In this document: piece by piece, positions 19,919-49,040 of the stretch
How positions within the stretch are numbered: position 1 is the stretch's first letter
Layout of the letters: each line of letters opens with the position of its first letter
NCBI GenBank assembly: GCA_038228545.1
Contig: JBBRPE010000002.1
Span: forward strand, 88,426 to 148,505
Length of the DNA: 60,080 nt
Direction of reading: 5' to 3'
Source of the DNA: Minisyncoccia bacterium
GTDB lineage: Bacteria; Patescibacteriota; Minisyncoccia; Phycocordibacterales; Phycocordibacteraceae
Position numbers and translations under genes: made by a program
Notes under the pieces: model-generated
Database searches by the model: none
What the model was told of the DNA's origin: nothing
What the model saw: the letters and a program-made list of their open reading frames with translations, nothing else

Positions 19919-19988
19919 CTCACGTATATAAAGAAACGCCTCGCGTAGCTGTAGCAAAAAAGACCCAACGGGTCTCTTTTGACATCTG

Positions 19989-20073
19989 CGGAGGAGGTGA
20001 GATTCGAACTCACGGTGACTTTCGCCACGGCGCATTTCAAGTGCGCTGGAATAAACCACTATCCGACTCCTCC
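19989..20073 (-). tRNA. tRNA-Ser (anticodon TGA), class II with long variable arm
   Basis: Acceptor GGAGGAG/CTCCTCC, anticodon stem GCGCA/TGCGC with loop CTTGAAA, variable arm CGTGGCGAAAGTCACCG, T arm GTGAG-TTCGAAT-CTCAC. Bidirectional terminator AGACCC-AAC-GGGTCT at about 19955-19980. Confidence 0.9.
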
Positions 20074-20553: not shown

Positions 20554-20573
20554 TCACCCAGTATACCACTAAG

Positions 20574-20849: not shown

Positions 20850-20895
20850 GGGCGCGAGTATAGCATGCGAGGGTGGAGCCGTGTAGGATGCAGAT

Positions 20896-21625: not shown

Positions 21626-21689
21626 TATTCACGTCTACGGAGCGATATCTGCATATACGTACAGGTGCGTCGCGCTATACTTCTAACAA

Positions 21690-23873: not shown

Positions 23874-24181
23874 ACCTTGCTTCTCTCACCACATTTCTTA
23901 AAAAATACCTACGAATGTTTTCGTATGGGGATCGTGTGCGACCGCAACGAGATTGGCTTATCCTCATGATGATAATGCTTGGCATTCTTGCGGTCAGTGC
24001 TGGATGGAGCTATTGGCTGTTCGAGCACATAAGTTCGGGTGAAGCAGAGTCACAATCAGCAACACCTGCAACATCCGTGAAAGCGGTATCACTCGACACC
24101 GTTCGCACTGTGTTTGATGCAAGAGCAATTGAGCACACGCACTACCTCAGTGACTACCACTTCGTTGACCCATCGAAGTAG
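23870..24181 (+). CDS. Hypothetical bitopic membrane protein, last gene of the pilMNO-like operon
   Basis: Start at MNLASLTTFLKK (ATGA overlap with the previous stop); TM helix WLILMMIMLGILAVSAGWSYWLF. Confidence 0.45.
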   Translation: MNLASLTTFLKKYLRMFSYGDRVRPQRDWLILMMIMLGILAVSAGWSYWLFEHISSGEAESQSATPATSVKAVSLDTVRTVFDARAIEHTHYLSDYHFVDPSK

Positions 24182-24199
24182 GGGAGCTAGGGTAGGTAT

Positions 24200-24271
24200 G
24201 CCCCTGTAGTTAAATGGATATAACTGCGGACTTCTAAGCCGTTATTCTAGGTTCGATTCCTGGCAGGGGCA
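24200..24271 (+). tRNA. tRNA-Arg (anticodon TCT)
   Basis: Acceptor GCCCCTG/CAGGGGC, D arm GTTA..TAAC, anticodon loop CTTCTAA (stem has one A-G mismatch), T arm CTAGG-TTCGATT-CCTGG. Confidence 0.8.
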
Positions 24272-24353
24272 CACGCTAGTGAGAGAGACTGAGAGTCCTA
24301 AAAGTAGACAGATCGCTTTCAATCCTACTTAGATTAAGCTAATATGGCTAGAC

Positions 24354-24791
24354 ATGGATTCACAAATTACTTTCCAAAAACTGAGTATTCCATTTGAGGC
24401 TGAACCAAATGTAGCAGTACCACAGGTTGAGGTTTTGAATGATAATTTGGTACTGAGCTTTACCACAAAAGATTCAGATACTGCCGGACGAATAACTTTC
24501 ATTAAACCCCTCATCTATCGAGTAGGTGCTCCAAACGATGAAGGATTCTACGGTTTTGGTTTTGATCCGAGAATTAAAAACGATAGTATCTATTCGAGAA
24601 AGAATTTTCCAAATTTAGATTTTGGCGACTTTCATCAAATCACTGGTGTTGATTGGAAAAGTAACTTACTCGGAGAAGGCACAAAGATCTTGGATGAAAA
24701 ATATACAGAGAAAGAAGGTTTCTCACATTATGTTTTCTTCATGAAAGATGGAACTTTTGAGTGTGTGGCAAAAAGTTGGAAAGTAGAATAA
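24354..24791 (+). CDS. Orphan hypothetical protein in an AT-rich islet between tRNA genes
   Basis: 145-aa ORF, no signal peptide, no recognised motif. Composition is visibly much more A+T-rich than the flanks. Confidence 0.55.
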   Translation: MDSQITFQKLSIPFEAEPNVAVPQVEVLNDNLVLSFTTKDSDTAGRITFIKPLIYRVGAPNDEGFYGFGFDPRIKNDSIYSRKNFPNLDFGDFHQITGVDWKSNLLGEGTKILDEKYTEKEGFSHYVFFMKDGTFECVAKSWKVE

Positions 24792-24927
24792 TCCCCCGAC
24801 CGAGGTGCCTTGATTTGATTATTTGAAATTACCAAAGGAACCCTTACGGGGTCTCACTTCACATTTTCCGAGACCTTGAGGGGGCACATGTATGGAATTT
24901 TCCGGTGGTGATACAGTCATAGTCATT

Positions 24928-25013
24928 GCCCGGGTGGCGAAATTGGTAGACGCGCTACGTTCAGGTCGTAGAACTCGTAAGGGTGTGGAGGTTCGAGTCC
25001 TCTCCCGGGCACC
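24928..25013 (+). tRNA. tRNA-Leu (anticodon CAG), the only tRNA here with encoded CCA
   Basis: Acceptor GCCCGGG/CCCGGGC, anticodon stem CTACG/CGTAG with loop TTCAGGT, long variable arm, T arm GGAGG-TTCGAGT-CCTCT, then ACCA. Confidence 0.9.
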
Positions 25014-25050
25014 AAAGAAAAGACCGAATGCTTGGCATTCGGTTTTTTCT
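25014..25050. terminator. Bidirectional terminator between convergent tRNA-Leu and tRNA-Val
   Basis: AAAGAAAAG-ACCGAATGC-TTG-GCATTCGGT-TTTTTCTTT. Confidence 0.8.
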
Positions 25051-25059
25051 TTGAAACGG

Positions 25060-25132
25060 TGGGCGCTGGAGGGCTCGAACCCCCGACATCTTCAGTGTAA
25101 ATGAAGCGCTCTACCAACTGAGCTAAGCGCCC
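25060..25132 (-). tRNA. tRNA-Val (anticodon TAC)
   Basis: Acceptor GGGCGCT/AGCGCCC, D arm GCTC..GAGC, anticodon stem CTTCA/TGAAG with loop TTTACAC, T arm GGGGG-TTCGAGC-CCTCC. Confidence 0.9.
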
Positions 25133-25203
25133 GTGGGGCCACTATACCGCATTCGGATTATTTATAAAGTAACCTCTCCGCGGTATGCTTTGTTTTCATA
25201 GAT

Positions 25204-25482
25204 ATGAACGAACGGCTTTTTGCTATTGTTTCCGGCCGGGTCCAGATGGTTATGTTCCGTGACTTTACACAGAGGAAGGGAAGCTCGCTCAAACTCACCG
25301 GACAGGTCCGAAATTTGGCTGACGGAACAGTCGAAGTACTGGCAGAAGGCTCACGTGCTTCACTTGAAGAACTGCTCGCAAAGCTTCACAAAGGTCCGCT
25401 CTTGGCGCATGTTGAGGGAGTAACGGCATCCTGGCTTCCGGCGACCAAAGAATTTACTAAGTTCAAAATCTCCTATGAATAA
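25204..25482 (+). CDS. acyP: Acylphosphatase
   Basis: 92 aa, VSGRVQMVMFRDFT...GQVRNLADGTVEVLAEG signature. Confidence 0.88.
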   Translation: MNERLFAIVSGRVQMVMFRDFTQRKGSSLKLTGQVRNLADGTVEVLAEGSRASLEELLAKLHKGPLLAHVEGVTASWLPATKEFTKFKISYE

Positions 25483-26155
25483 TGTCCCAACATCGATAGG
25501 TCTCATCCTCGACGGAAACCGTCGCTGGGCGAAAGAGCAGGGCATACCTTCATTTGAAGGCCATCGTCGTGGCTACGAGAAGGTGAAAGACCTTGTTGAT
25601 TGGGCACAGGAAGCTGGAATTAAGGAAGTGATTGTGTACGCCTTCTCGACTGAGAATTGGAATCGCTCCGAAGAAGAAGTGTCGTATCTCATGAAGCTTC
25701 TCGAAGGAGCATTCGATGACTGGCTGAAAGAAATACAGGAGAAGGGAATACGAGTGCGATTCATCGGCGAGCGTGAACGTGTTGCTCCACACATAGTGGC
25801 TCGGATGAGTGATATGGAAGAAAAAACGAAAGATGCGACGAATGGTGTTCTTGCGATTGCTCTTTCCTACGGAGGGCGGGACGAAATACTTGATGCGGTG
25901 AACACACTGCTTGCCGAAGGACGTGACCAGGTCACGGCCGAAGAACTATCTGAAAAAATGTGGAGCGCCGGGCTCGCAGATCCCGACCTTATTATACGAA
26001 CAAGCGGTGAACAACGCCTCTCGAATTTTCTTACTTGGCAGTCAGCTTACAGTGAACTTTTTTTTACAAAAACAAAATGGCCAGCTTTCTCGAAAGAAGA
26101 ATTTAATTCGATACTTGGTGAGTATGCAGAGCGTGAACGCAGACACGGTAAATAA
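25475..26155 (+). CDS. uppS: Undecaprenyl diphosphate synthase
   Basis: GLILDGNRRWAKE, YAFSTENWNRS, IRTSGEQRLSNFLTWQSAYSELFF. Confidence 0.93.
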   Translation: MNNVPTSIGLILDGNRRWAKEQGIPSFEGHRRGYEKVKDLVDWAQEAGIKEVIVYAFSTENWNRSEEEVSYLMKLLEGAFDDWLKEIQEKGIRVRFIGERERVAPHIVARMSDMEEKTKDATNGVLAIALSYGGRDEILDAVNTLLAEGRDQVTAEELSEKMWSAGLADPDLIIRTSGEQRLSNFLTWQSAYSELFFTKTKWPAFSKEEFNSILGEYAERERRHGK

Positions 26156-26179
26156 GCTAAAGAATGGTAGGGTGTCCTC

Positions 26180-26920
26180 ATGAACCCGCAGATTCTGTAC
26201 GAAGACGACGATATCGTCGCAATTAACAAGCCGTCGGGCATCATGACGCACCCGGATGGCAAGACGACCGAGCAAACCGCGAGTGATTGGTTTGCTTCGA
26301 CATATCCAGCCTCAGCGGATGTCGGTGAATTGCAAAAGCTTCAGAACGGCGAAGAGATTCGTCGCCCGGGCATCGTGCATCGCCTCGATAAGGAAACGTC
26401 GGGCGTGCTGGTCTTCGCGAAGACTGCAGAGGCGCACGCGCTTATGAAAGCAGCATTCCAGGAACGCGAAGCACGTAAGACCTATCTCGCATTTGTATAC
26501 GGTGTGCTTAAGGAGAAGAAGGGAATTATAGATTTCCCCATTGGACGCTCGACGCAGGATTTCCGCTTACGCAGTGCGCAGCCAAAGGCAAAAGGTCTTC
26601 TTCGTGATGCTCTCACGCGTTGGGAGACAGTCTCAGACATCGGCACACACACGCTTCTAAAGGCCATGCCGGAGACAGGACGCACGCACCAGATTCGCGT
26701 CCATCTTAAGGCGATTCATCATCCAGTTGTCTGTGATTCACTCTACGCACCAAACCAGAAAGCTGACCTTGGATTCAATCGGTTGGGCCTTCATGCCTAC
26801 CAGCTACAGATAGCTGTCCCGTCCGGGGGCACGAAAGTCATCATTGCTCCGGTTCCGGAAGACCTTCGCGAGGCAATGGCGAAATTCCCTAAAACCGAGG
26901 AGTTTCTTGCCCGTACGTAG
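26180..26920 (+). CDS. RluA-family pseudouridine synthase
   Basis: [16 protein letters not shown], catalytic [27 protein letters not shown]. Confidence 0.9.
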
Positions 26921-26945
26921 GGGCTGTGATACAGTTCTGACCACT

Positions 26946-27473
26946 ATGCAAGCGGTAATAACTCCGGTTTCAACTCAGGAACGCTCCAAACTCGGCATCC
27001 GCCCGGGCGACACGGTGCGTGTCCACCAGAAAGTCATTGAGAAGGGCAAGACTCGTATCCAGATGTTCGAGGGTCTCGTCATAGCCGTGAAGCACGGTAC
27101 AGAGGCAGGCGGCACCTTTACGGTACGTGCTCAACTGTCAGGCATTGGCGTCGAGAAGATTTTCCCACTCTACTCCCCAGTTATCGATAAAATTGAAATA
27201 ACCAAGCGCTCAAAGGTTCGTCGCGCAAAGCTCTACTTCATCCGTGAGAAGGTTGCTCGTGAAGTACGCCGCCAGCTCCGTAATATGCGCATGGTCAACA
27301 TGTCGACTGAGGACTTTAAAGAAGAGCCTGTTATGGAAGAAGTAGCTCCTGAAGAGGTCATGGAGGAAGCTCCAGCTATTGAGGCTTCGGAACCTGAAAC
27401 TCCAGCAGAAGAGGAGGCAGCAGCAGAAGCCGAGACACCTGTCGAAGAAGAAAAGAAGGAAGAAGCGGAATAA
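26946..27473 (+). CDS. rplS: 50S ribosomal protein L19 with about 60-aa acidic C-terminal extension
   Basis: Start at MQAVITPV (26946). Core is [35 protein letters not shown]....[14 protein letters not shown]. Tail is [18 protein letters not shown]...EEEKKEEAE. Confidence 0.9.
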
Positions 27474-27474
27474 A

Positions 27475-27514
27475 CAAAAGAAACGAGCGCCGTAACGGCG
27501 CTCGTTTCTTTTGT
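27475..27514 (+). terminator. rplS terminator
   Basis: ACAAAAGAAACGAGCGCC-GTAA-CGGCGCTCGTTTCTTTTGT. Confidence 0.8.
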
Positions 27515-27558
27515 ACAAAGAGGCCTTTCCCCTTACAGGGGCAGTCTATCTTTGCATT

Positions 27559-27746
27559 TTGTGCCCAGGAGAGGATCGCGAGTACGCTCTTGGTCACAAG
27601 TCATTCGTTCGTCGTCACTCACGAATGCTCGCGACCCCGCCTCGCGGGGCTCGTTGCTACTCGCCCAACGCTCCGGCATTCAAGTCCTTTCCTGGTGCTA
27701 CAAAATGAAGTCGCCGGACGCTTTCGCATCCGGCTCGTTCATATTG
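27559..27746. repeat. tRNA-linked element B: distal direct copy and inverted copy of the tRNA-Leu(GAG) 3' end around a GC-rich structured core
   Basis: TTGTGCCCAGGAGAGGA occurs at 27559-27575 and again at 27744-27760, the real tRNA end. Inverted copy TTCAAGTCCTTTCCTGGTGC at 27679-27698. Boxes shared with A (27576-27596) and C (27630-27644). Confidence 0.7.
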
Positions 27747-27828
27747 TGCCCAGGAGAGGACTTGAACCTCCACCCCCGAAAGGACATCCACCTCAAGGAT
27801 GCGTGTATACCAATTTCACCACCTGGGC
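27747..27828 (-). tRNA. tRNA-Leu (anticodon GAG)
   Basis: Acceptor GCCCAGG/CCTGGGC, anticodon stem CATCC/GGATG with loop TTGAGGT, variable arm TCCTTTCGGGGGT, T arm GGAGG-TTCAAGT-CCTCT. Confidence 0.9.
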
Positions 27829-27925
27829 AGGTGTGAGACGACTATAGCGCATGCATGGCCTTGATGCCAGAGTCGAATACAAAAGCTAATAATTTTAGCG
27901 CGTTCGTGTTATAACGCACCTACAT

Positions 27926-27999
27926 GGCGGCTTTAGCTCAGCTGGTAGAGCATCGGTTTGTGGTACCGACGGTCGTGGGTTCGAGCCCCACAAGTCGCC
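27926..27999 (+). tRNA. tRNA-His (anticodon GTG) with genome-encoded G-1
   Basis: G-1 (27926) opposite C73; acceptor GCGGCTT/AAGTCGC, anticodon stem TCGGT/ACCGA with loop TTGTGGT, T arm GTGGG-TTCGAGC-CCCAC. Confidence 0.9.
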
Positions 28000-28017
28000 C
28001 TAAAATATACTAAACAT

Positions 28018-36968: not shown

Positions 36969-38618
36969 ATGGAAGAAACACTGCGTACTGCAGTCCAAAA
37001 GGCTCTCGCAGATGCGGGTGCGTCTGATACGTCGTTCGCTATAGAGTGGCCGACTGACTTTGCACATGGCGATTACTCCACGAATGCTGCCATGGCTGCA
37101 GCGAAAGCACTTGGGAAGAATCCCAAGGAACTAGCATCTGAGCTCGCTACGAGTCTCAAGGAAAGTCTTGGAGAAACAGTCGAGTCGGTAACAGTTGCCG
37201 GTCCTGGATTCATAAATTTCACGCTCGCACGGCCGGTCATTTCCGGAATCGTGAAAGAGGCAGCGGCTCTCGGAAGTGAATGGGGAAGGGGTGCAGAGCT
37301 CGAAGGGAAGAGATACTCAATTGAGTATTCGTGTCCGAATCCATTCAAGGAGATGCATATTGGCCACCTCATGAGCACGGTCATTGGTGAAGCTCTCTCG
37401 CGAGTTATCGAGAACGAAGGAGCGACGGTTATCCGTGACAGCTATGGAGGTGATGTAGGTCCACACGTAGCGAAAGCAGTATGGGCATTGCAGAAAAAAG
37501 GAATTACAGAGCCTGCGAACGCAAAGGAAGTCGGAGATGCGTACGCGCACGGCTCACGTGCATACGAGGAGAGCGAGGAAGCTAAAACGGAAATTGACGC
37601 GCTCAACCGAGCTATCTATGTTGGAAACGACAGAGACCTTATGGAGCTCTGGCGCAAAGGACGCGAGGTGTGTCTCGAAGAATTTAAAGAAATATACAAA
37701 GTTCTTGATACCCACTTCGACTACTTCTTTTTTGAAAGCGAAACTGCGGTCCCTGGCATGGAGGTGGTCAAAGACGGACTTGCAAGAGGCGTGTTTGAGG
37801 AAAGTCAGGGAGCCATTATTTACAACGGTGAAAAGAAGGGCCTACATACGCTCGTGTTCGTCACCTCGCAGGGCAATCCGACCTACGAAGCAAAAGAAGT
37901 TGGCCTCGCATTTCTTATCGAGGAGCGCGTACCGTCTGACGTTCGGTACATTCTTACTGCTGCCGAGCAGGTGGGGCACTTTGCGGTGGTGAAGGCTGCA
38001 CTTGAAGACATTGGTCCGTTGGTCGCCGCTAAGACCTCGCATGTACCACATGGATTCCTTCGCCTTACGACCGGGAAAATGTCATCGCGCGAGGGGAGTG
38101 TCATCACCGCGACTGACCTTATTGCAGACATCATCAAAGTCGCTCGCGAACGTAATGAAGATTCGCTCATCGCACAGGCTGTCGCGATTGGAGCAATCAA
38201 ATACATGATTCTTCGTCAGGCCGCAGGCGGAGACATTATTTTCGATGTTGATAAGTCGCTCTCACTTGAGGGTGATTCAGGTCCATATCTCCAGTACGCG
38301 CTCGTGCGTGCCCGAAAGATTCTTTCCTATGCTCCGGAAAAGCTACTTGATGCGGAAGCGCCGGCAACTCCGTACACGCTCGAACGACTCATCGTTCGCT
38401 TCCCTGAGGTCGCGCGTCAGGCTGCAGCGGACCATGCGCCGCATGCGATAACGCAGTACCTCACCAAGCTCGCGGGGGAGTGGAATTCTTTTTATGCGAG
38501 CGAGCAGGTACTTGGAAGCGACGGCGAGGCATATAAGTTGGTACTGGCGAAAGCGTTTGCAACAACAATGGAGAACGGTCTCCGCATGCTTGCGATTCCT
38601 GCTCCCGAACGGATGTAG
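36969..38618 (+). CDS. argS: Arginine--tRNA ligase
   Basis: IEYSCPNPFKEMHIGH (HIGH), ..TGKMSSREG.. (KMSKS variant), DALR anticodon-binding C-terminus ending ..M. Confidence 0.93.
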   Translation: MEETLRTAVQKALADAGASDTSFAIEWPTDFAHGDYSTNAAMAAAKALGKNPKELASELATSLKESLGETVESVTVAGPGFINFTLARPVISGIVKEAAALGSEWGRGAELEGKRYSIEYSCPNPFKEMHIGHLMSTVIGEALSRVIENEGATVIRDSYGGDVGPHVAKAVWALQKKGITEPANAKEVGDAYAHGSRAYEESEEAKTEIDALNRAIYVGNDRDLMELWRKGREVCLEEFKEIYKVLDTHFDYFFFESETAVPGMEVVKDGLARGVFEESQGAIIYNGEKKGLHTLVFVTSQGNPTYEAKEVGLAFLIEERVPSDVRYILTAAEQVGHFAVVKAALEDIGPLVAAKTSHVPHGFLRLTTGKMSSREGSVITATDLIADIIKVARERNEDSLIAQAVAIGAIKYMILRQAAGGDIIFDVDKSLSLEGDSGPYLQYALVRARKILSYAPEKLLDAEAPATPYTLERLIVRFPEVARQAAADHAPHAITQYLTKLAGEWNSFYASEQVLGSDGEAYKLVLAKAFATTMENGLRMLAIPAPERM

Positions 38619-38630
38619 ATAGCACTACTT

Positions 38631-38656
38631 GCCTAACGCAGTATTCGGCGTTAGGC
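38631..38656 (+). terminator. argS terminator hairpin
   Basis: GCCTAACGC-(8 nt)-GCGTTAGGC followed by a T-rich tract. Confidence 0.6.
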
Positions 38657-39000
38657 TCGTTCTTGTCTCCATTTCGGGAGACGACTGATACAGGGGAGTG
38701 ACCTTTGGCGCGTAAGAGCAAACAAAAGAAGGACCTGGTGGGGACCTTCTGCCGCGAATTGCGGTGCAACACGGTGGCGCTTTTTCATAAAGCGTTCGCC
38801 TGGAGGCATCGGCGGCATGATGGTCGAACCATCAGTCACGCCCATGCGACCTACCAGCGCAAAGGAAGAATTCCCGATTGGGTTCGGGACTTCATCCAGC
38901 ACGTGCGCGGTCTGGGCGTAACTGCTCTTCCCGCATAGGCGGGGAACCTACTTCATGACGGCGGCCTGGCGTGAAAGCGTCGGGCCGTTTCCTTTTTTAG
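38657..39000 (+). other. Unassigned, relatively GC-rich structured non-coding region (candidate ncRNA or ileS leader) ending in its own terminator
   Basis: No convincing ORF. Several local hairpins: GTCTCC/GGAGAC at 38664-38681, GAAGGACC/GGACCTTC at 38728-38749, GATGGT/ACCATC at 38819-38833. Terminal stem 38962-38987 has two G-U pairs that work only on the + strand, followed by TTTCCTTTTTT, 27 nt before the ileS ATG. Confidence 0.4.
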
Positions 39001-39026
39001 GTCGTAAACGCTACGATAAGTAAATT

Positions 39027-42000
39027 ATGGCCGATATAGATACTGACGCAGTCGAGAAGTCTGAAGCAGCTCTTCGTGAGGAAGAAATCCTAACCTTCTG
39101 GAAGGATAATCAGATTTTTGAAAAATCACTTGAGCGCGGAAGCGAGAAAAAGACGTTTGTTTTTTACGAAGGACCGCCAACGGCCAACGGCCGACCGGGC
39201 GTCCATCACCTCATGGGGCGGGCCTTTAAAGATGCTATCCCGCGCTACAAAACGATGCGCGGATTCCGTGTACCGCGCCGAGCTGGCTGGGACACGCACG
39301 GACTTCCCGTAGAACTCGAAGTCGAGAAGCAGCTTGGTTTTAAAGGTAAACAGGATATTGAAGAGTACGGGATAGCTGCATTCAATGCGAAGTGTCGTGA
39401 GAGTGTGTTTGATTACATTCACGAGTGGGAGCGCTTCACTGCGCGTATGGGGTATTGGGTCGATTTAGAGAAGGCGTACTTCACGTTCGATGCATCCTAT
39501 ATGGAGTCGGTGTGGAACGTATTCAAGAAAGTAAATGATGACGAACAACTGTATAAGGACTACCGCGTTGTCCCGTGGTGCGTGAAGTGCGGTACGGCAC
39601 TTTCAAGCCACGAACTCGCTCAAGGCTACGAGGACGTAAAGGACCTTTCTATAACAGCGAAGTTCGAGCTGGCGGACGAGCCCGGCACCTATCTGCTCGC
39701 GTGGACGACGACTCCCTGGACACTCCCGGGTAACGTCGCACTTGCTGTGGGGAACGATATCGACTACACAAAAGTACGAACTGCTGACGGCACGTTTGTC
39801 GTTGCAAGCAAACTCCTCGGAAAAACTTTTACGGATACGGAACATGAAGTACTCGCCACAATGAAGGGACGTGACCTCGTTGGGAAGTCGTATAAACCAC
39901 TCTATCCGTTTGCTAAGGAACTTGCCTCCGACACTGAGAAGGAAAAGTTCGACAAAGCTTTTCAGATATATCCTGCAGATTTCGTAACGACCGAAGACGG
40001 TACCGGTATCGTGCACACTGCCGTGATGTACGGTCAGGAAGATTTTGAGCTGGGTCAGAAGCTCGGACTTCCGAAGGTGCATCTTGTTGCTCCGGACGGC
40101 ACGTTTATTCCCGGCACTGGTTTTCTTGAAGGAGCATCCGTTATCGACGCTGAGACGAATGTCGCTGTGCTCAAAGATTTGCAGGAGAAGGGACTCTTTT
40201 TCTCGAAGGAAAACTATTCACACTCCTATCCGCACTGTTGGCGCAGTAAGAATCGTCTCATCTACTACGCGCGCGACTCGTGGTATATCCGCATGACCTC
40301 ACTTCGCGAGGAACTCATGGCTGAAAACCAGAAGGTGAACTGGGAACCGAGTTACATACGCGATGGTCGTATGGGGGAGTGGCTCGCCAACGTGCGCGAC
40401 TGGGCGATATCGCGAGAACGCTACTGGGGCACGCCGCTTCCGATATGGCAGAACGAAGACGGTACCGAACGCGTCGTTATCGGTTCAATCGAGGAACTTA
40501 AGAAGCGCACGAAGAAGAGCGGTAATCGCTACTTCATCATGCGTCACGGGCAATCAGAAAATAATGTCGCAGAGCAGATGGATTCGACCGATGAAATGAA
40601 ATGGCCGTTGACGGAAAAAGGACGTATGGATGTGCTTGCAGATATTGGGAAATTGAAAGAGGCGAAGATAGATTTCATTACACACTCTCCGTTGTACCGC
40701 ACACAGCAGACGGCGAGCATTGTTGCCGAAGCACTTGGTATTCCAACTGAATCAGTCGTCGTAGATGAACGCATACGTGAGATACAGATAGGGACGCTTT
40801 CTGGGAAAAACATACAGGATTTTATTGACTTCCGCGCCACGCACGCGTTCAGTGAGAAGTTCCCCGGTGGCGAAAGCTTTATGGACGCAAAGAATCGGTT
40901 TGCATCACTACTCTACAGTCTGGAGGCGGAGCATACTGGAAAGAATATTCTTATCGTTACGCATGGCATTGGACTTCAGATCGCAACTGCAATTGTCGAA
41001 GGAGCCGATGAAAAGCGCACCACGGAAATTGTCGAGAACGACGAACCCCACAATGGGGAAGTCCGCGAGCTTACCTTCGTGTCGCTTCCGCATAATAAAA
41101 GCTTTGAGCTCGATTTGCATCGTCCCTACATCGACGACGTAAAACTCATATCCGATTCTGGTGTCGAGCTCACACGCGTGAAGGAAGTCATGGATGTATG
41201 GTTTGATTCCGGCGCTATGCCATTCGCACAGGACCACTATCCGTTCGAAAACAAGGACGGGGTTGATTCCAAAGGTTTTCCCGCTGATTTCATTTCGGAA
41301 GCGATAGACCAAACACGCGGCTGGTTCTACACACTGCTTGCTGTGGGTACGCTTATGGGGAAGGGAGCTGCGTACAAGAATGTTATTTGCCTTGGTCATT
41401 TGCTCGACCAAAAGGGTCTCAAGATGAGTAAATCAAAAGGCAACATCATTGAACCGATGGCAGCCATGAAGCGGTACGGTGCTGACACGCTACGTCTGTG
41501 GATGTATAGCGTGAACCAGCCAGGAGACAGTAAGAGTTTCGACGATAAGACCGTGAAGGAATCCGCGCGCGTACTCTCATGGTTTGAAAATAGCGTTAAA
41601 TTCTACGAACTCTTTAAGGACGTTCGTGGGGCAGACGAGAAGCCAGAGGTTATCGATATGTGGATGCGCACACGCGTGTCCGAAACAATCGCGAAGGCGA
41701 CTACGGCACTCGATGCGTATGACCTCTACACTGCAACTCGCTCAATCTCAGTTTTGGTAGAAGATTTGTCGCAGTGGTACGTACGCCGCGTGCGCGATCG
41801 TGTGCGTGATGGCGACCAGGCAGCTATTACCACGCTCCGCGATACGCTCCAGACGGTAGCCGTACTTCTGGCTCCATTCACGCCATTTGTTGCTGAGTGG
41901 GCCTATCAGGCTGTCCGCGAGGACTCAGACCCCGAGAGCGTACACCTTGCTGATTGGTACGAGCCCGGCACCATTGATACCGACCTTATTCAGAATATGG

Positions 42001-42374
42001 CGAGCACGCGCACGCTTGCCTCTGAAGCACTCCGCGTGCGACAGGCCGCTGGTATAAAGGTTCGTCAGCCGCTTGCCTCACTCTCGATACCGGGTACGCT
42101 CCCGAGCGAGTTTGCTGAACTTCTTGCTGAAGAAGTGAATGTTAAGACAATTGTCACAAATGCTGAGGGTATGGCACTCGACACGGTACTTACTCCCGAG
42201 TTACTTACAGAAGGGGATGAACGTGCGTTCATGCGCGCAGTCGCTGAGGCACGTAAGGAAGAAGGCTTCTCTCCGAGCGATACCGTCACAGCTACAAAGG
42301 GCGACGAAGGAAAATACGTGGCGGAACTTTCAACGGGCACCGTTCGCTTCTCGCTCACTCTCGATGCGTCATAA
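39027..42374 (+). CDS. ileS: Isoleucine--tRNA ligase (type 2-like) with an inserted histidine-phosphatase domain
   Basis: PPTANGRPGVHH.MG, CP1 editing TTTPWTLPGN, WAISRERYWGTPLPIW, DVWFDSG, DQTRGWFY, KMSKSKGN. 1115 aa, single uninterrupted frame. Confidence 0.93.
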   Translation: MADIDTDAVEKSEAALREEEILTFWKDNQIFEKSLERGSEKKTFVFYEGPPTANGRPGVHHLMGRAFKDAIPRYKTMRGFRVPRRAGWDTHGLPVELEVEKQLGFKGKQDIEEYGIAAFNAKCRESVFDYIHEWERFTARMGYWVDLEKAYFTFDASYMESVWNVFKKVNDDEQLYKDYRVVPWCVKCGTALSSHELAQGYEDVKDLSITAKFELADEPGTYLLAWTTTPWTLPGNVALAVGNDIDYTKVRTADGTFVVASKLLGKTFTDTEHEVLATMKGRDLVGKSYKPLYPFAKELASDTEKEKFDKAFQIYPADFVTTEDGTGIVHTAVMYGQEDFELGQKLGLPKVHLVAPDGTFIPGTGFLEGASVIDAETNVAVLKDLQEKGLFFSKENYSHSYPHCWRSKNRLIYYARDSWYIRMTSLREELMAENQKVNWEPSYIRDGRMGEWLANVRDWAISRERYWGTPLPIWQNEDGTERVVIGSIEELKKRTKKSGNRYFIMRHGQSENNVAEQMDSTDEMKWPLTEKGRMDVLADIGKLKEAKIDFITHSPLYRTQQTASIVAEALGIPTESVVVDERIREIQIGTLSGKNIQDFIDFRATHAFSEKFPGGESFMDAKNRFASLLYSLEAEHTGKNILIVTHGIGLQIATAIVEGADEKRTTEIVENDEPHNGEVRELTFVSLPHNKSFELDLHRPYIDDVKLISDSGVELTRVKEVMDVWFDSGAMPFAQDHYPFENKDGVDSKGFPADFISEAIDQTRGWFYTLLAVGTLMGKGAAYKNVICLGHLLDQKGLKMSKSKGNIIEPMAAMKRYGADTLRLWMYSVNQPGDSKSFDDKTVKESARVLSWFENSVKFYELFKDVRGADEKPEVIDMWMRTRVSETIAKATTALDAYDLYTATRSISVLVEDLSQWYVRRVRDRVRDGDQAAITTLRDTLQTVAVLLAPFTPFVAEWAYQAVREDSDPESVHLADWYEPGTIDTDLIQNMASTRTLASEALRVRQAAGIKVRQPLASLSIPGTLPSEFAELLAEEVNVKTIVTNAEGMALDTVLTPELLTEGDERAFMRAVAEARKEEGFSPSDTVTATKGDEGKYVAELSTGTVRFSLTLDAS
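40521..41096 (+). other. Histidine phosphatase (PGM-like, branch 1) domain embedded in IleRS (aa about 499-690)
   Basis: RYFIMRHGQSENN (RHG at 40542-40550), LTEKGR, SPLYRTQQTA, EIQIGTLSG, PGGES, ILIVTHG (His codon at 40962-40964). Confidence 0.8.
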
Positions 42375-42924
42375 GTATTCGACAGAAGCGCTCGTACTCG
42401 CACGCACTCCTCTTTCTGAGGCTGGCATGCTTATAACGCTTCTTACTCCCGAGCTCGGACTTATTCGCGCACGTGCAGAAGGTCTGCGACGTTCAGGTGC
42501 GAAACTCGCGCACGCACTCCAAACCTTTAATGAAACAGACGTCATGTTGGTACGCGGAAAAGAAGGTTGGCGACTGACCGGAGCCATTCTTTCCCAGAAT
42601 CGTTTTAGCGAGTTGACGCACATTTCCCGCATGCGCGCCGCACGCGTTGCCGGCCTCTTGCTACGTCTTGTGCACGGAGAAAGTTCCGACCCACTTCTCC
42701 ACGCGCATTTCCGGGAGTTCATGGATGCACTTCCTATGCTCACACCCGAAGAAGCAGAGACAGCCGAGTCGCTCGTTGTTATGCGTCTTCTTTCGGTACT
42801 TGGCTTTGACGCCGGAGACCTTCCTCCAGACGGGTATGGCACTCCCGCCCACCTACATGCGCTCGAACAACGCTCAAGCATCATCGCGCGCATAAATCGC
42901 GGCATTGCCGCCGCAGGCGTCTAG
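42364..42924 (+). CDS. recO: DNA repair protein RecO (short form)
   Basis: Start at MRHKYSTEALVLARTPLSEAG.., overlapping the ileS end by 11 nt. OB-fold N-terminus and helical C-terminus typical of RecO. Confidence 0.8.
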   Translation: MRHKYSTEALVLARTPLSEAGMLITLLTPELGLIRARAEGLRRSGAKLAHALQTFNETDVMLVRGKEGWRLTGAILSQNRFSELTHISRMRAARVAGLLLRLVHGESSDPLLHAHFREFMDALPMLTPEEAETAESLVVMRLLSVLGFDAGDLPPDGYGTPAHLHALEQRSSIIARINRGIAAAGV

Positions 42925-44835: not shown

Positions 44836-44996
44836 CATATGGAGCTTGCTGGAAAATTCCATATACTTCGTTATGGGTCCCGATTCGTTACTTCGTCGTA
44901 TAGCACATACGCCTCCGTTCCGAATCCTCCCACGCCTCGTCTCTGGAGCTTTTCCAACAACCTCAACACGTGCCGATTAAGAAACTCCACATTTTT

Positions 44997-46379
44997 ATGA
45001 ACACACCATCCCTCGACACCATTGTTTCACTCGCCAAGCGTCGTGGCTTTGTATATCCCGGTTCTGAAATATACGGTGGTCTTGCCGGAACGTTCGATTA
45101 TGGACCACTCGGTGTCGCTCTTAAGAAGAATATCGAAGCGCTCTGGTGGCGCACCTTTGTCGAGCTTCGCGATGACATGTATGGCATCGATTCAAGTATC
45201 CTCATGAATCCGAAGGTCTGGGAAACCAGTGGACATGTGGGTGGATTTAACGACCCACTCGTTGAGGATGCAAAGACCAAAAAGCGTTACCGTGCAGACC
45301 ACCTGCTTGAAGAGGCGGGTGTAGATCCATCCGGAATGACTCTGGAAGATATGGGTGCGGCCATTACCGAGCATAAACTCAAGAGTCCTGACGGAAACGC
45401 ATTCTCCGAGCCTCAGCAGTTCAATATGATGTTCAAGACCACAGTCGGTTCCGTAGAAGGAGAAGACATGGCGGTGTATCTGCGTCCGGAGACGGCCCAG
45501 GGTATGTTTGTAAACTTCAAGAACATTATTGATTCATTTCATCCGAAGGCACCGTTCGGCATCGCGCAGATAGGTAAGGCGTTTCGTAATGAGATTGCTC
45601 CACGCGAATTCCTATTCCGTGTGCGTGAGCTCGAAATAATGGAGCTTGAGTATTTTCTTAAGGAAGAGACATGGGAGGCCGAGTTCGAAGCATGGCGCAC
45701 CGCAATGCACGCGTGGTTTACCGACCTCGGGTTCCTGCCTGAGGAGATTCAGGAAGTGGAAGTACCAAAAGAAGAACGTGCCCATTACTCAAAGCGCACT
45801 CTCGATTTCTATTTCAAATACCCGGGAGGCTTTAAGGAAATTGGAGGTCTTGCGTATCGTACTGACTTCGACCTCTCTCGCCACAAGGAGGAGAGTGGGG
45901 CGGAGCTTGCCTACCTCGACCCGGAGACCAACGAGCGCTCCATGCTCCATGTGATTGAACCGACATTCGGTCTTGGTCGCCACGTACTCGCTGCGCTCGT
46001 AAACGCATACACTGTAGACGAACTTGGCGGAGAAGAACGCGTCGTACTCAAGCTTTCACCAAAGATTTCGCCTATTAAAGCGATGGTATCCCCGTTGCTG
46101 AAGAACAAGCCAGAGCTCGTCGAAAAGGCGAGGGAAGTGCGCGACATACTCCGTAAGGTGCACCCAGCTATCGCTTGGGACGACAACGGTAACATCGGCA
46201 AGCGCTATCGCCGCCAGGACGAGATTGGTACACCATTCTGTATTACGGTCGACTTCGACACGCTCGGCGAAACTCCGGACCTTAAAGACACCGTCACCCT
46301 GCGAGACCGCGACACTGGCGAGCAAGAGCGCCTGACTATAGCTGAAGCTGCGGAGCGCATTCGGACCGCTATTTCCTAA
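44997..46379 (+). CDS. glyQS: Glycine--tRNA ligase (dimeric alpha2 type)
   Basis: ORF opens at 44970; the conserved N-terminus (..IVSLAKRRGFVYPGSEIYGGLAGTFDYGPLG) begins at the internal Met. RPETAQGMF, FRNEI.PR. Start coordinate is approximate. Confidence 0.9.
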   Translation: MNTPSLDTIVSLAKRRGFVYPGSEIYGGLAGTFDYGPLGVALKKNIEALWWRTFVELRDDMYGIDSSILMNPKVWETSGHVGGFNDPLVEDAKTKKRYRADHLLEEAGVDPSGMTLEDMGAAITEHKLKSPDGNAFSEPQQFNMMFKTTVGSVEGEDMAVYLRPETAQGMFVNFKNIIDSFHPKAPFGIAQIGKAFRNEIAPREFLFRVRELEIMELEYFLKEETWEAEFEAWRTAMHAWFTDLGFLPEEIQEVEVPKEERAHYSKRTLDFYFKYPGGFKEIGGLAYRTDFDLSRHKEESGAELAYLDPETNERSMLHVIEPTFGLGRHVLAALVNAYTVDELGGEERVVLKLSPKISPIKAMVSPLLKNKPELVEKAREVRDILRKVHPAIAWDDNGNIGKRYRRQDEIGTPFCITVDFDTLGETPDLKDTVTLRDRDTGEQERLTIAEAAERIRTAIS

Positions 46380-47480: not shown

Positions 47481-49040
47481 ATGGCCCGATACATTACCAC
47501 CACGCTTCCGTACGTGAACGCGGACCCGCATATTGGGTTCGCACTTGAATTGGTGCAGACTGACACGCTCGTGCGTCTTTGGAGAGGGAACGGAGAGGAA
47601 GTTTTTTTCAATACCGGTACGGATGAGCATGGACAGAAAATACTCGAGACAGCCGATAAAAAAGGCCAACCGGTTCAGGAGTACGTCGACCACTACGCGA
47701 GCGAGTTTCGGAAGTTGAAAGAGGCGCTCTCGCTTGATAACCCGACGTTCGTCCGCACAACGGACGCGCATCACATGAAGGCTGCAGAAGAAATTTGGAA
47801 ACGCTGCGAAGCGGCCGGCGATATATATAAGAAGTCCTACGTTGGTCTGTATTGCGTGGGATGCGAACTCTACAAGACGGAAAAAGAACTGACTGAGGAC
47901 GGGCACTGCCTCATCCATACACATCTAAAGGCAGAGGAGGTGTCTGAAGAGAATTACTTCTTCCGGCTTTCAAAATATTCCGATCAGTTGCGTGCATACC
48001 TTCAGCGCCCGGGCGTTATTGTCCCCGAATGGCGCCGTGAGGAGGCGCTCAATTTTCTCGAGAGTGGCCTTGAAGATTTCAGTATCTCGCGCGATGCGTC
48101 CCGGCTTTCGTGGGGAATCCAAGTGCCGGGAGATCCATCGCAAGTAATGTATGTTTGGTTTGATGCGCTCACTAACTACATCTCGACGCTGGGATGGCCA
48201 GAGGATTCGGACGGGACATTCGAACGATATTGGCAGAAGGGCAACACACTGCAGATGGCAGGGAAGGACCAGGTACGGTTCCAGACCATCATGTGGCAGG
48301 CGATGCTCATTTCGGTCGGCTTGAAGAATACCGACCAGCATTTCGTGCATGGGTTTATAACTTCGGGCGGACAAAAGATGAGTAAGTCGCTCGGAAACGT
48401 CATTAATCCCTATGAACTCGTCGAGAAGTACGGTACGGATGCAACTCGGTATATGCTTTTGCGCCATGTACATCCTGTTGAGGATTCGGACGTCACATGG
48501 GAACGACTTGATGAATGGTATCTGGCAAATCTTGTAAACGGATTAGGTAACCTCGTCTCGCGCGTCATGAAGCTTGCCGAAGAGCATCTTCTGGCCCCGG
48601 TCGTGCTCACAGAAGACGATATGCTAGTGGAAGAAGCGTTTACGGTTGAGCTCCGCTTCTTCCGCTTCAACGAAGCTCTCAATCTTCTCTGGGAGCACGT
48701 GAATAAAGGCGACGAGTTTATGACGAGCCACGAGCCCTATAAGAAAATAAAGGGAGACGACACAAAGGAAGAGGCACTCGCTGATATCGAGAAGTTGGTA
48801 CGTCATGTTGCGAAGGTGGCAGTAAATCTAGGTGTGGTGATGCCTCATACGAGCGAGCTCATACTGTCCGCAGTCCGCGCGAACAAGAAGCCGGAGAACC
48901 TCTTTCCCCGCTTGAGTCAGCAAGCGGCCGGCGAAGCGCGGGGCTTGAGTCAGCAAGCGGCCGGCGAAGCGCGGGGCTTGAGTCAGCAAGCGGCCGGCGA
49001 AGCGCGGGGCTTGAGTGAGCAAGCGCGGGACCTTAGTTAG
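47481..49040 (+). CDS. metG: Methionine--tRNA ligase (short form) with repeat-encoded C-terminal tail
   Basis: TTTLPYVNADPHIGF (HIGH-type), GTDEHGQKI, KMSKSLGN, anticodon-binding helical domain. Last about 45 aa are LSQQAAGEARG x3 plus LSEQARDLS. Confidence 0.92.
   Translation: MARYITTTLPYVNADPHIGFALELVQTDTLVRLWRGNGEEVFFNTGTDEHGQKILETADKKGQPVQEYVDHYASEFRKLKEALSLDNPTFVRTTDAHHMKAAEEIWKRCEAAGDIYKKSYVGLYCVGCELYKTEKELTEDGHCLIHTHLKAEEVSEENYFFRLSKYSDQLRAYLQRPGVIVPEWRREEALNFLESGLEDFSISRDASRLSWGIQVPGDPSQVMYVWFDALTNYISTLGWPEDSDGTFERYWQKGNTLQMAGKDQVRFQTIMWQAMLISVGLKNTDQHFVHGFITSGGQKMSKSLGNVINPYELVEKYGTDATRYMLLRHVHPVEDSDVTWERLDEWYLANLVNGLGNLVSRVMKLAEEHLLAPVVLTEDDMLVEEAFTVELRFFRFNEALNLLWEHVNKGDEFMTSHEPYKKIKGDDTKEEALADIEKLVRHVAKVAVNLGVVMPHTSELILSAVRANKKPENLFPRLSQQAAGEARGLSQQAAGEARGLSQQAAGEARGLSEQARDLS
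48911..49040 (+). repeat. Tandem repeat: three perfect 33-bp units plus one degenerate, truncated unit
   Basis: CTTGAGTCAGCAAGCGGCCGGCGAAGCGCGGGG at 48911-48943, 48944-48976 and 48977-49009. Degenerate copy from 49010 to the metG stop at 49038-49040. Confidence 0.95.

Follow-up and report, generated by a model that had tools for sequence, protein, structure and literature searches.

An isoleucyl-tRNA synthetase (IleRS) of a Paceibacteria (Patescibacteria/CPR) bacterium holds, nested in its catalytic core, what its sequence marks as a complete and apparently active histidine phosphatase of branch 1 (PhoE/CobC/PspA-like). Few enzymes are as conserved as the aminoacyl-tRNA synthetases, and new biology has repeatedly come to light through catalytic domains that they have gained, such as editing domains and the appended domains of eukaryotes. 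Here, a second, apparently active catalytic centre of unrelated chemistry, phosphomonoester hydrolysis, lies in the core of an essential synthetase across a large bacterial radiation. The identity of its substrate could expose an unrecognised need of translation, or of the nucleotide or amino-acid economy, in ultra-small symbiotic bacteria.

Results

The window, by which we mean the whole stretch of 60,080 nucleotides analysed, carries ileS as a single uninterrupted frame of 1,115 aa at 39027..42374; this and all other features given here lie on the + strand. The first-pass annotation had read this ORF as one polypeptide with every IleRS landmark in order, and each motif that it listed is present at the place it gave. 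The whole protein, insert included, scores 863.3 bits against the TIGR00392 IleRS equivalog (cutoff 621.4), which bears out the reading as a bona fide IleRS. Its closest solved relative by sequence is Priestia megaterium IleRS2 (PmIleRS2, 8C8W, E=9.5e-229), which is also the top structural match (TMq 0.72) of a full-length AF2 model (pLDDT 84.6). Class IleRS2 was taken to require a C-terminal ARD3/DUF5915-type domain, no IleRS1 zinc-binding domain and greatest closeness to IleRS2 structures. The top PDB matches are PmIleRS2 and TtIleRS, with IleRS1 structures far lower (E ~1e-93), and PF19302 (DUF5915) is marginal in the window protein (26.3 bits vs 27) and recorded in many close relatives. 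By these matches the ileS product is a genuine type-2 IleRS, the predicted housekeeping enzyme of its host.

The class Ia landmarks follow one another in the usual order, and their motifs are conserved in our alignment (A1). GVHH (aa 58-61, 39198..39209) is the non-canonical G/AXHH form of the class I HIGH signature, a motif known in mupirocin hyper-resistant IleRS2 variants (PMC10485003); in the alignment P57 and H61 are invariant, and G58 and H60 are at least 90% conserved. The CP1 editing motif TTTPWTLPGN (aa 227-236, 39705..39734) is invariant, and the conserved core motif WAISRERYWGTPLPIW (aa 459-474, 40401..40448) stands just 5' of the insertion loop. Downstream lie DVWFDSG in the second half of the Rossmann fold (aa 723-729, 41193..41213), DQTRGWFY (aa 761-768), the invariant KMSKS loop (aa 799-803, 41421..41435) and an Anticodon_1 domain (aa 877-1016, 41655..42074; Pfam E=2.1e-24).

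Compared with IleRS2 enzymes of known structure (PmIleRS2 8C8W/8C8V and T. thermophilus 1ILE), family and domain order are alike and both flanks of the insert are colinear. In the alignment to 8C8W, aa 14-495 pair with residues 10-478 and aa 693-1042 with residues 484-847, so that the gap defines an insert of about 197 residues (aa 496-692, 40512..41102) in place of a loop of about 5 residues in insert-free IleRS2. The earlier claim of a long insert thus stands, but its estimate of a native linker of a couple of dozen residues is too high, the linker being about 5 residues in 8C8W. The zinc-knuckle loop, flanked by WxISRxRxWG on one side and the DLHRP/DxWFDSG segment on the other, takes the insert at its tip; the CxxC...CxC cysteines that bracket this loop in insert-free IleRS2 are absent from the window's clade.

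As the first-pass annotation had expected, a Pfam search places His_Phos_1 (PF00300) at aa 503-665 (40533..41021, E=6.6e-29), nested inside tRNA-synt_1, at 101.4 bits for the whole protein and 105.8 for the isolated insert against a threshold of 21.7. The top PDB sequence match of the insert is PhoE (YhfR) of Geobacillus stearothermophilus (1H2E/1EBB, E=3e-14, 28% identity), which has the same fold (TM 0.77-0.78) and the same catalytic residues, the alignment pairing its RHG, Arg, Glu and His with those of the insert. The first motif, RYFIMRHGQSENN (aa 501-513, nt 40527-40565), contains RHG (R506, the nucleophile H507 and G508; 40542..40550). It is followed by LTEKGR (528-533), SPLYRTQQTA (554-563) with the second phosphate-binding arginine R558 (40698..40700), EIQIGTLSG (585-593) with the predicted general acid E585 (40779..40781), which aligns with the Glu of PhoE 'REIHLG', PGGES (613-617), and ILIVTHG (641-647) with the second catalytic histidine H646 (40962..40964). 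The two catalytic His codons, 40545-40547 and 40962-40964, are exactly those named beforehand. A return linker with the consensus F-V/x-P/S-L-P-H-N-x-x-Y/F-E-L-D-L-H-R-P-Y-I-D-D (aa 684-704, 41076..41138; 'el.FvpLPHN..yELDLHr' across 69 genes) leads back to the IleRS core, with pLDDT 88-91 over the junction. Modelled alone by AF2, the insert reaches pLDDT 93.5 and pTM 0.90, and in the full-length model it is the best-predicted region (pLDDT 91-96). Structure prediction, which had been proposed as a check, thus shows the insert as a discrete domain.

The structural neighbours of the insert (GpgP Rv2419c, PspA, riboflavin-pathway HFP, PhoE, CobC and TIGAR; TM 0.75-0.79) are all metabolite phosphatases, and Sts, PGAM5 and SixA are not among them. 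PhoE, PspA, GpgP Rv2419c and CobC share its minimal size of about 190-200 aa. Unlike PhoE-type phosphatases, the insert is nested in another enzyme and fits none of the curated functional subfamilies, scoring below every NCBIfam cutoff: NF038349 (dPGM_arch) 74.5 bits vs 225, TIGR01258 28 vs 81.7, TIGR03162 (CobC) 62.9 vs 162.9, NF045917 (PspA) 52.3 vs 350 and TIGR00249 (SixA) 34.4 vs 74.5. A specific phosphatase function drawn from these models was rejected, all scores being far under the cutoffs. The inserted domains are acidic (median pI 5.46, net charge -7), the window copy at pI 5.0 and charge -11.

The same IleRS-phosphatase architecture is found in 120/120 best full-length database matches, in 80/80 loci retrieved from GTDB species of the Paceibacteria/Parcubacteria and, at 50% identity and E<=1e-30, in 163 clusters; copies without the insert number 0 among the 120 best homologues and 80 retrieved loci of the window's IleRS type. 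These counts confirm a fusion common to hundreds of related species, far beyond chance. In 69 orthologues, R506, H507, R558 and H646 are each conserved in 69/69, G508 in 66/69, and position 585 is Glu in 68 and Asp in one; R558 is invariant in the stand-alone family as well. Overall identity is 42% in the insert vs 64% in the core, and within the phosphatase conservation is confined to the active-site motifs, with no conserved surface beyond the active site. The branch-1 set (both His, two Arg and the Glu) is complete, as anticipated, and is conserved in related genomes, which had been one of the proposed checks. Because the catalytic residues are invariant over deep divergence, selection acts for catalysis rather than mere tolerance, and the alignment shows the catalytic set to be under strong purifying selection.

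An assembly chimera, a frameshifted pseudogene or a decayed domain is virtually impossible. Certain database matches, some of them on long contigs, are only 150-470 aa long, which would fit such an artefact, but these fragments come from error-prone assemblies in which neighbouring genes are frameshifted too. Independent studies contribute 69 full-length genes in which the fusion is intact, as it is in 120 database proteins; the catalytic residues are intact too, and recurrence of the fusion in hundreds of independent assemblies settles the earlier question of a chimera in the negative.

Upstream of ileS lies argS (36969..38618; Pfam), a conserved neighbour in the gene order argS-[HP]-ileS-recO, which is seen in L001 and L083-L087. 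The 408-nt non-coding spacer between argS and ileS (38619..39026), with terminator-like hairpins at 38631-38656 and 38960-38989, is where sister lineages hold a stand-alone phosphatase homologue of ~195 aa, next to an insert-free ileS. This homologue stands within argS-HP-ileS in 4/5 contexts examined, in one example overlapping argS by start and stop codon (TAATG) and ending 5 nt short of ileS. The insert is an end-to-end match of the stand-alone phosphatases, from MKLNNKYF..RHG to the C-terminal ..GE(V/L)R.LN, and the N-x-Y-F lead-in to RHG is specific to this family, being common to the insert and the stand-alone proteins of Patescibacteria. None of 81 fused loci has a second phosphatase copy, and where the argS-ileS cluster has a stand-alone copy (4 loci) IleRS is insert-free; fused and free forms occur together in 0 cases among the loci examined. 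This complementarity suggests that the cell needs exactly one copy. A decayed stand-alone gene in the spacer was rejected, tblastn giving no phosphatase similarity within the window or across 42 related spacers, as was a T-box or other known leader RNA 5' of ileS, no Rfam family matching there even at E<=1. In locus L087 the stand-alone phosphatase is separated from ileS by a toxin-antitoxin pair, and a more distant stand-alone homologue is found ~3.5 kb from RtcB and TGT.

The inserts are hypervariable, forming 54 clusters at >=60% identity among the 69 genes. Since synonymous sites are saturated, dN/dS (NG86) fails for most insert pairs, and we used identity at fourfold sites of conserved-residue codons instead, with neighbouring genes as the yardstick. 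This identity is 0.525 in the core and 0.451 in neighbouring genes vs 0.295 in the insert, with a background of 0.28 at saturation (Fisher p=2.8e-12 and 1.3e-6); synonymous sites are saturated in the insert only. Otherwise collinear loci show an unalignable hole of about 490 nt at this place. A three-way comparison gives a clear mosaic: the core places L044 with L003 (bootstrap 1.000), but the insert places it with L022, the L044-L003 grouping there having bootstrap 0.000. These comparisons show an insert history decoupled from that of the host gene: lineages exchange the cassette by recombination, and the breakpoints fall at the edges of the domain. Through such exchange the surface diversifies fast while the active site stays frozen, a clean natural example of domain-level recombination in a highly conserved essential gene. 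The neighbour-joining tree of the phosphatase domains is star-like and without resolution, so we draw no direction of fusion versus fission from it.

Two further readings were considered and rejected. A diversity-generating retroelement or local hypermutation is unlikely, there being neither a duplicate of the insert nor a template repeat for it in the 60-kb window and the divergence covering the whole ~500 nt, synonymous sites included. An intein would call for a Hint domain, Cys or Ser at its N-terminus and, at its C-terminus, His-Asn with Cys/Ser/Thr next. Here the junctions are KKSGN|RYF and ..LPHN|KS, the residue after HN being Lys, which is not a nucleophile; an intein or mobile element is rejected on these wrong junction residues, the lack of a Hint or endonuclease domain and flanking repeats at chance level only. 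Inteins and homing elements remain an analogy, as they likewise sit in frame at a conserved site of an essential gene with a decoupled history. Unlike them, the insert stays in the mature protein as far as sequence tells and encodes a conserved, predicted active enzyme.

The same phosphatase domain is found at two further IleRS sites (three in all, one beside the anticodon-binding domain), as 2-4 tandem copies, in two IleRS subtypes and in a ValRS. One IleRS (P0239) carries both a GNAT, in the CP1/editing region, and the phosphatase, and another (P0219) combines the phosphatase with a P-loop kinase-like insert (AAA_18/AAA_33/zeta-toxin type) at a second site. Pfam finds no kinase domain in the window protein.

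Discussion

We favour, with a probability of about 0.5, an autonomous PhoE-like small-molecule phosphomonoesterase that is partnered with IleRS by co-expression and tethering. It would work on its own on a small phosphorylated molecule, probably a metabolite or nucleotide and neither the tRNA body nor a protein; nucleoside mono- or bisphosphates are among the candidates, as are phospho-amino or phospho-sugar acids. We infer the small-molecule type from the structural neighbours and the acidic surface, both indirect evidence, and from conservation confined to the active-site motifs. That the phosphatase-IleRS partnership is selected is told by the adjacent stand-alone gene, by the mutually exclusive forms and by capture that has happened repeatedly and independently, at other IleRS sites and in ValRS. 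Because this partnership works in trans, from three sites, in 2-4 apparently active tandem copies and with ValRS, the tie to IleRS would be one of co-expression, stoichiometry and co-localisation, with no precise geometric hand-off. Against this reading, conserved junction motifs and high-confidence linkers suggest a fixed orientation of the phosphatase on IleRS, needless for a purely co-expressed passenger, and the repeated capture by IleRS and ValRS in particular hints at a mechanistic tie to aminoacylation that a generic metabolite phosphatase leaves unexplained; the active-site pocket could also accept a tRNA 3' end.

Repair of tRNA ends is an unlikely alternative. The phosphatase would clear the CCA end of tRNA-Ile (tRNA-Val in the ValRS variant) of a 3'-phosphate, a 2',3'-cyclic phosphate or a 3'-(pyro)phosphate added by a toxin, and the tethered synthetase could then charge the tRNA. 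The insertion lies within the catalytic domain of a tRNA-handling enzyme, and two class Ia synthetases have repeatedly captured the same domain. By analogy, the P-loop kinase (AAA_33/zeta type) paired with the phosphatase in one relative resembles RNA end-healing enzymes and would follow the kinase-plus-phosphatase logic of polynucleotide kinase-phosphatase. The homologue near RtcB and TGT would also fit, and an arms race against toxins that target tRNA would be a suitable setting for fast diversification through exchange. However, the phosphatase is a free protein in sister lineages, and three sites, one of them beside the anticodon-binding domain, and tandem arrays are tolerated, so the phosphatase cannot depend on being placed at the acceptor end. 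Its domain is acidic with no conserved surface outside the active site, its close structural relatives all act on metabolites, and we know of no histidine-phosphatase branch-1 enzyme that acts on RNA ends. For these reasons, the acidic and fast-evolving surface included, the first-pass proposal of tRNA 3'-phosphate removal tied to acceptor-path geometry is disfavoured; among the roles it offered, hydrolysis of a phosphorylated small molecule fits better.

That the domain is a tolerated passenger or selfish cassette is also rather improbable. Here it would have no IleRS-related role, would have entered ileS from the neighbouring gene, and would persist since its removal from an essential gene is risky, spreading by recombination via the conserved IleRS flanks, loosely like a non-splicing intein. 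A stand-alone copy directly upstream of ileS offers the mechanistic opportunity, and the several sites, the tandem arrays, the hypervariable inserts with their decoupled history and the unrelated enzyme domains (GNAT, P-loop kinase) likewise inserted in such IleRS genes are all in keeping with it. A passenger, however, is hard to square with catalytic residues that are all invariant over deep divergence, with an insert present in every one of the 120 best homologues and 80 loci, with the fused/free complementarity, or with the lack of a Hint/intein or endonuclease domain, splice-junction nucleophiles and flanking repeats. More speculative, and improbable as it stands, is a rapidly diversifying repair or immunity module, with CPR class Ia synthetases, IleRS and one ValRS or more, serving as scaffolds on which enzyme cassettes are exchanged horizontally. 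Such a module would strip phosphate or pyrophosphate placed by toxins on the tRNA 3' end, a nucleotide cofactor or the synthetase, keeping tRNA-Ile and IleRS chargeable. If so, the toxins would come from competitors, hosts or phages, and cassette swapping would record an arms race inside an essential translation enzyme.

We give still less credence to a protein or regulatory phosphatase acting on IleRS or a translation factor, for example by reversing inactivating phosphorylation by a HipA-type kinase toxin, or to a phosphohistidine phosphatase. The superfamily includes protein phosphatases, tethering would raise the local concentration, diversification fits antagonistic co-evolution, and the toxin-antitoxin pair in L087 could be cited for it. 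However, the weak N-terminal similarity to SixA (34 bits vs 74.5) is far under the cutoff, the structural neighbours are metabolite phosphatases, not Sts, PGAM5 or SixA, and neither the window nor related loci have an evident kinase partner. It is very doubtful, too, that the insert is a relocated core metabolic enzyme such as the cell's cofactor-dependent phosphoglycerate mutase (dPGM). CPR genomes are streamlined and gene fusions are frequent in them, and of the NCBIfam models the short archaeal dPGM NF038349 is the most similar, but its 74-89 bits are far under the 225-bit cutoff. dPGMs carry an ERHYG motif, whereas this family has E...G.(f/l).G and no ERHYG-type motif, and N512 is variable (Asn in 30/69). 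Swapping and diversification at such a rate would also be surprising in a core glycolytic enzyme.

The phosphatase nested in IleRS has two partial precedents among curated models. NF040702 ('ileS_w_GNAT') describes an IleRS with an unrelated enzyme domain inserted internally; it differs in holding a GNAT where the window protein holds a histidine phosphatase, and the site appears different. The window protein scores 313.9 bits against its cutoff of 1999 and has no GNAT Pfam match. The bifunctional RNase H/acid phosphatase (NF005567, PRK07238; Rv2228c-type) joins a nucleic-acid enzyme to a CobC/PhoE-like histidine phosphatase, and among NCBIfam models it ranks second in similarity to the insert (67-71 bits, cutoff 326). 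That protein is an end-to-end fusion with another partner enzyme, in contrast to the nested insertion here. In line with the first-pass annotation, which was not aware of any described synthetase fused to a histidine phosphatase, no curated NCBIfam model exists for a phosphatase-containing IleRS. Nor was a published description found in those parts of the literature, including IleRS and aminoacyl-tRNA synthetase architecture papers, that a full-text search reached. The fusion is undescribed rather than unseen, as such sequences have been public since 2015 with automatic Pfam matches. The insert degrades automatic annotation, and 'class I tRNA ligase family protein' is therefore the only label that many of these proteins carry.

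Phosphatase domain nested in IleRS

The ileS gene of the window is a single uninterrupted ORF (39027–42374, + strand) of 1,115 aa, encoding a bona fide type-2 IleRS (IleRS2) with a nested, folded phosphatase domain whose catalytic residues are conserved. A histidine phosphatase inserted in IleRS as part of one polypeptide had been proposed in the first-pass annotation, made by a model from the sequence alone, and this observation is confirmed: every IleRS and phosphatase motif it listed was found in place, its two catalytic His codons are exact (H507, 40545–40547; H646, 40962–40964) and the Pfam match that it expected, His_Phos_1 (PF00300), covers aa 503–665 (E = 6.6e-29), nested between two tRNA-synt_1 blocks with Anticodon_1 downstream. 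The whole protein, insert included, scores 863 bits with the TIGR00392 IleRS equivalog (cutoff 621). Because IleRS residues 14–495 and 693–1042 align with residues 10–478 and 484–847 of Priestia megaterium IleRS2 (8C8W), its nearest relative of solved structure, the insert (aa 496–692; 40512–41102, + strand) amounts to about 197 residues in place of about five. It occupies a loop between the WxISRxRxWG motif and the DLHRP/DxWFDSG segment, hereafter site 1. A full-length AlphaFold2 model based on 55 homologues (mean pLDDT 84.6, pTM 0.74) superposes on IleRS2 structures with a TMq of 0.72, and some of its highest confidence falls in the insert (pLDDT 91–96; junctions 88–93). Modelled by itself, the insert reaches a pLDDT of 93.5 and a pTM of 0.90.

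The class I HIGH signature motif takes the non-canonical G/AXHH form, here GVHH (aa 58–61; 39198–39209, + strand), a form linked to mupirocin hyper-resistance in IleRS2 in PMC10485003. It is kept across the fused clade, with P57 and H61 invariant and G58 and H60 conserved in at least 90%. Zinc-knuckle cysteines (CxxC ... CxC) bracket the insert-hosting loop in insert-free IleRS2 relatives (loci L083, L085 and L086, and protein P0240), and the complete set is absent from the flanks in the window's clade (40449–40490 and 41139–41183; 47 of 55 sequences have none and the others at most one). The phosphatase domain may now stand in structurally for the zinc site; P0239, a fused protein of the other IleRS subtype, retains the cysteines.

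Searching with the insert and its flanks returned about 35 proteins with both PF00133 and PF00300, mostly fragments labelled Patescibacteria, Paceibacterota and similar, and where such fragments lie on long contigs, frameshifts have split neighbouring genes of the same assemblies too. With the full-length query, PF00300 is present in all of the best 120 matches (61–73% identity, 1,107–1,163 aa). Their database names are no more than 'isoleucyl-tRNA synthetase' or 'class I tRNA ligase family protein', and some come from Parcubacteria genomes submitted in 2015. Scanning one genome per GTDB species gave 390 matching stretches, and the best 80 all span the insert and both flanks at 46–61% identity. 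When 1.84 billion cluster representatives were searched exhaustively, 163 clusters matched at E<=1e-30, with the insert at approximately residues 450–750 in full-length members. None of the retrieved genomes is a near-identical relative of the window, the IleRS core (the protein without the insert) being at most 80% identical to any of them. That the fusion is an assembly artefact is extremely improbable. Many full-length fused proteins, P0272, P0282, P0295, P0308, P0340 and P0371 among them, carry only the ligase-family name, the insert presumably interfering with the equivalog model, and several clearly Paceibacteria contigs are labelled Bacillota or Saccharibacteria (L006; many 'Candidatus Saccharibacteria' TPA titles).

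Among 69 full-length fused genes from different species, identity to the window's IleRS is only 42% for the insert versus 64% for the core. The catalytic residues, whose conservation the first-pass annotation had proposed to check, are kept: R506, H507, R558 and H646 do not vary, E585 is replaced by Asp in one gene and kept in the other 68, and G508, T529, G532, G589 and the GGES motif hardly vary. The conserved residues align one-to-one with the catalytic residues of PhoE, the broad-specificity phosphatase of Geobacillus stearothermophilus (1H2E/1EBB). Judged from the sequences, such active-site-limited conservation is the signature of a presumably active enzyme with a small substrate. The insert scores below the curated cutoff of every functional subfamily scored (dPGM, CobC, PspA, GpmB and SixA), and each of its nearest structures (TM 0.75–0.79) is a small-molecule phosphatase: glucosyl-3-phosphoglycerate phosphatase, PspA, a riboflavin-pathway phosphatase, PhoE, CobC and TIGAR.

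Stand-alone form and further insertions

One match of 205 aa with PF00300 only is encoded by a gene of its own, which lies between argS and an ileS of 955 aa that lacks the insert. At its true start (MKLNNTYFFMRHGQ) this gene shares the overlap TAATG with the argS stop codon, and 5 nt separate its own stop from the ileS ATG. Its product belongs to a stand-alone family of at least 120 Patescibacteria proteins of about 190–200 aa, two of which are auto-named 'isoleucyl-tRNA synthetase'. The order AA_kinase-argS-HP-(0-3 small genes)-ileS-recO, with HP the stand-alone phosphatase, occurs in four of the five contexts examined, all with an insert-free ileS of 951–982 aa; in the fifth (locus L088, 1–2219 and 4501–5079) the most distant stand-alone homologue examined lies away from ileS. 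The alignment between stand-alone proteins and the window insert runs from the first residues of the former to their C-terminus (..GE(V/L)R.LN versus ..GEVRELT), which means that the loop has taken up an entire protein.

Fused and free states are complementary in distribution: IleRS is insert-free in 4/4 loci with a stand-alone gene in the argS–ileS cluster, and no further phosphatase ORF exists in any of the 81 fused loci. The argS–ileS interval of fused loci is a non-coding spacer (median about 450 nt) at the place where other lineages have the phosphatase gene of about 600 nt, and no phosphatase remnant is detectable in the spacer of the window and related fused loci. The L088 homologue lies about 3.5 kb from genes for RtcB (RNA 3'-phosphate ligase) and tRNA-guanine transglycosylase (TGT) on the opposite strand, and in locus L087 (5152–6319) an RHH antitoxin/ParE-YafQ-type toxin pair and an HD_3 phosphohydrolase gene separate the stand-alone phosphatase from ileS.

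The phosphatase is also found elsewhere in IleRS, in more than one copy, and in ValRS. Five database proteins (P0202, P0228, P0230, P0223 and P0246) have two phosphatase domains each, and in P0240 site 1 is intact and insert-free, with the phosphatase between the catalytic and anticodon-binding domains. P0243 (1,161 aa, truncated) is a ValRS by NCBIfam (411 bits versus 199 for ileS). It contains four or more His_Phos_1 domains, in tandem or interspersed, all of which keep RHG/R/H; one of them is at the position equivalent to IleRS site 1. Site 1 is occupied in two IleRS2 subtypes (PPTANG..GxHH and PPFATG..HYGH). Other enzymes are inserted too: P0219 has an extra Walker-A P-loop kinase-like domain (aa ~735–900; AAA_18/AAA_33/zeta-toxin/CPT) at a second site between DxWFES and DQTRGWFY, and P0239 has two added GNAT acetyltransferase domains, at aa 305–413 in the editing region and at aa ~965–1000 in that second site. 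IleRS in these bacteria appears to accept inserted enzymes quite generally. Inserted and stand-alone forms are intermixed relative to PhoE in a distance tree of the phosphatase domains, which does not resolve the order of events.

Exchange of the insert

Core and insert identities are nearly uncorrelated across the 69 genes (Spearman 0.23), and the nearest neighbour by core differs from that by insert for 53 of them. Gene pairs with cores 87–93% identical have inserts only 40–49% identical, whereas at the same core divergence the L003/L004 inserts are 80% identical. At fourfold-degenerate sites in codons with a conserved amino acid, identity is 0.525 for the ileS core (1108/2109), 0.451 for neighbouring genes (1318/2922) and 0.295 for the insert (75/254), against a saturated background of 0.28 (Fisher p = 2.8e-12 for insert versus core and 1.3e-6 for insert versus neighbouring genes). 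Neither relaxed nor positive selection at the protein level can saturate synonymous sites.

The loci are collinear, but a stretch of about 490 nt that coincides exactly with the insert cannot be aligned; between L003 and L044, nucleotide identity is 0.88–0.91 up to about aa 480, 0.45–0.56 across aa ~500–660 and 0.79–0.86 past about aa 680. The L044 core groups with L003 (0.93 versus 0.82; bootstrap 1.000), and its insert groups with L022 (0.65 versus 0.44; bootstrap 0.000 for L003). Inserts of the 69 genes form 54 clusters at >=60% identity, and one >=80% core cluster holds 11 insert types. The most economical reading is that inserts are exchanged through recombination events whose breakpoints fall at the edges of the domain; localised hypermutation of the insert is unlikely. 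Insert GC3 is below core GC3 in 62 of 69 genes, yet it tracks core GC3 (r = 0.92), which points to relatives as donors.

Interpretation and comparison

We favour, with a probability of about 0.5, a layered reading: an IleRS2 with a nested phosphatase that has an operon twin, recurs elsewhere and is exchanged as a cassette, and that would be an autonomous small-molecule phosphomonoesterase partnered with the synthetase. The benefit would come from the phosphatase being made together with, and held at, the synthetase. Action on the tRNA 3' end, for which the P-loop kinase co-insert and the restriction to Ile and Val enzymes speak, is rather unlikely: three sites, tandem arrays and a trans form all work, so exact placement near the acceptor end cannot be the point, and the acidity of the inserted domains (median pI 5.46, net charge −7, 97% below pI 7) argues against a tRNA-gripping surface. 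That the insert is a tolerated or selfish passenger of the synthetase is unlikely, and that it acts as a protein phosphatase is improbable. A relocated phosphoglycerate mutase or other core enzyme is about as improbable, the dPGM score being under the cutoff and mutase-type motifs being absent from the insert domain in the 69-gene comparison.

Synthetases with inserted or appended domains are well known, NCBI curates an IleRS-with-GNAT model, and RNase H/acid phosphatase is a known histidine phosphatase fused to a nucleic-acid enzyme. The first-pass annotation was aware of no described synthetase–histidine phosphatase fusion, and our full-text literature searches likewise found none. No such fusion is mentioned in a 2026 preprint on the domain annotation of about 96,000 GTDB IleRS sequences, in the AARS Online catalogue or in the IleRS2 structural paper. 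The fused sequences are public and auto-annotated, and the fusion is an undescribed lineage-wide variant rather than a category of its own. What makes it more interesting than a simple fusion are its twin in the operon, its spread over several sites and copy numbers, and the exchange of the cassette.

The ileS leader and neighbourhood

The window neighbourhood (thyA, tmk, glyA, argS, ileS, recO, a surface protein, a class II synthetase, a transporter and metG) has a gene order common to related loci. The argS–ileS spacer is a non-coding leader of 408 nt (38619–39026, + strand), unusually long for a compact genome, with a terminator-like hairpin directly after argS (38631–38656, + strand) and a second strong hairpin, of 13 bp and with a U-tract, roughly 30 nt ahead of the start of ileS (38960–38989, + strand). 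Related fused loci have long spacers too, with short blocks conserved between species. No Rfam family matches the leader, which may be an uncharacterised attenuator or leader.

The recO ORF (42139–42924) overlaps the ileS 3' end (stop 42372–42374), and a RecO_N match starting at ORF residue 76 implies that recO starts near 42364, about 11 nt before the end of ileS; the two genes are probably translationally coupled. Nine tRNA genes are dispersed over about 13 kb on both strands (15057–28000), and the 60-kb window holds four synthetase genes: argS, ileS, the class II enzyme (44970–46379) and metG (47481–49040).
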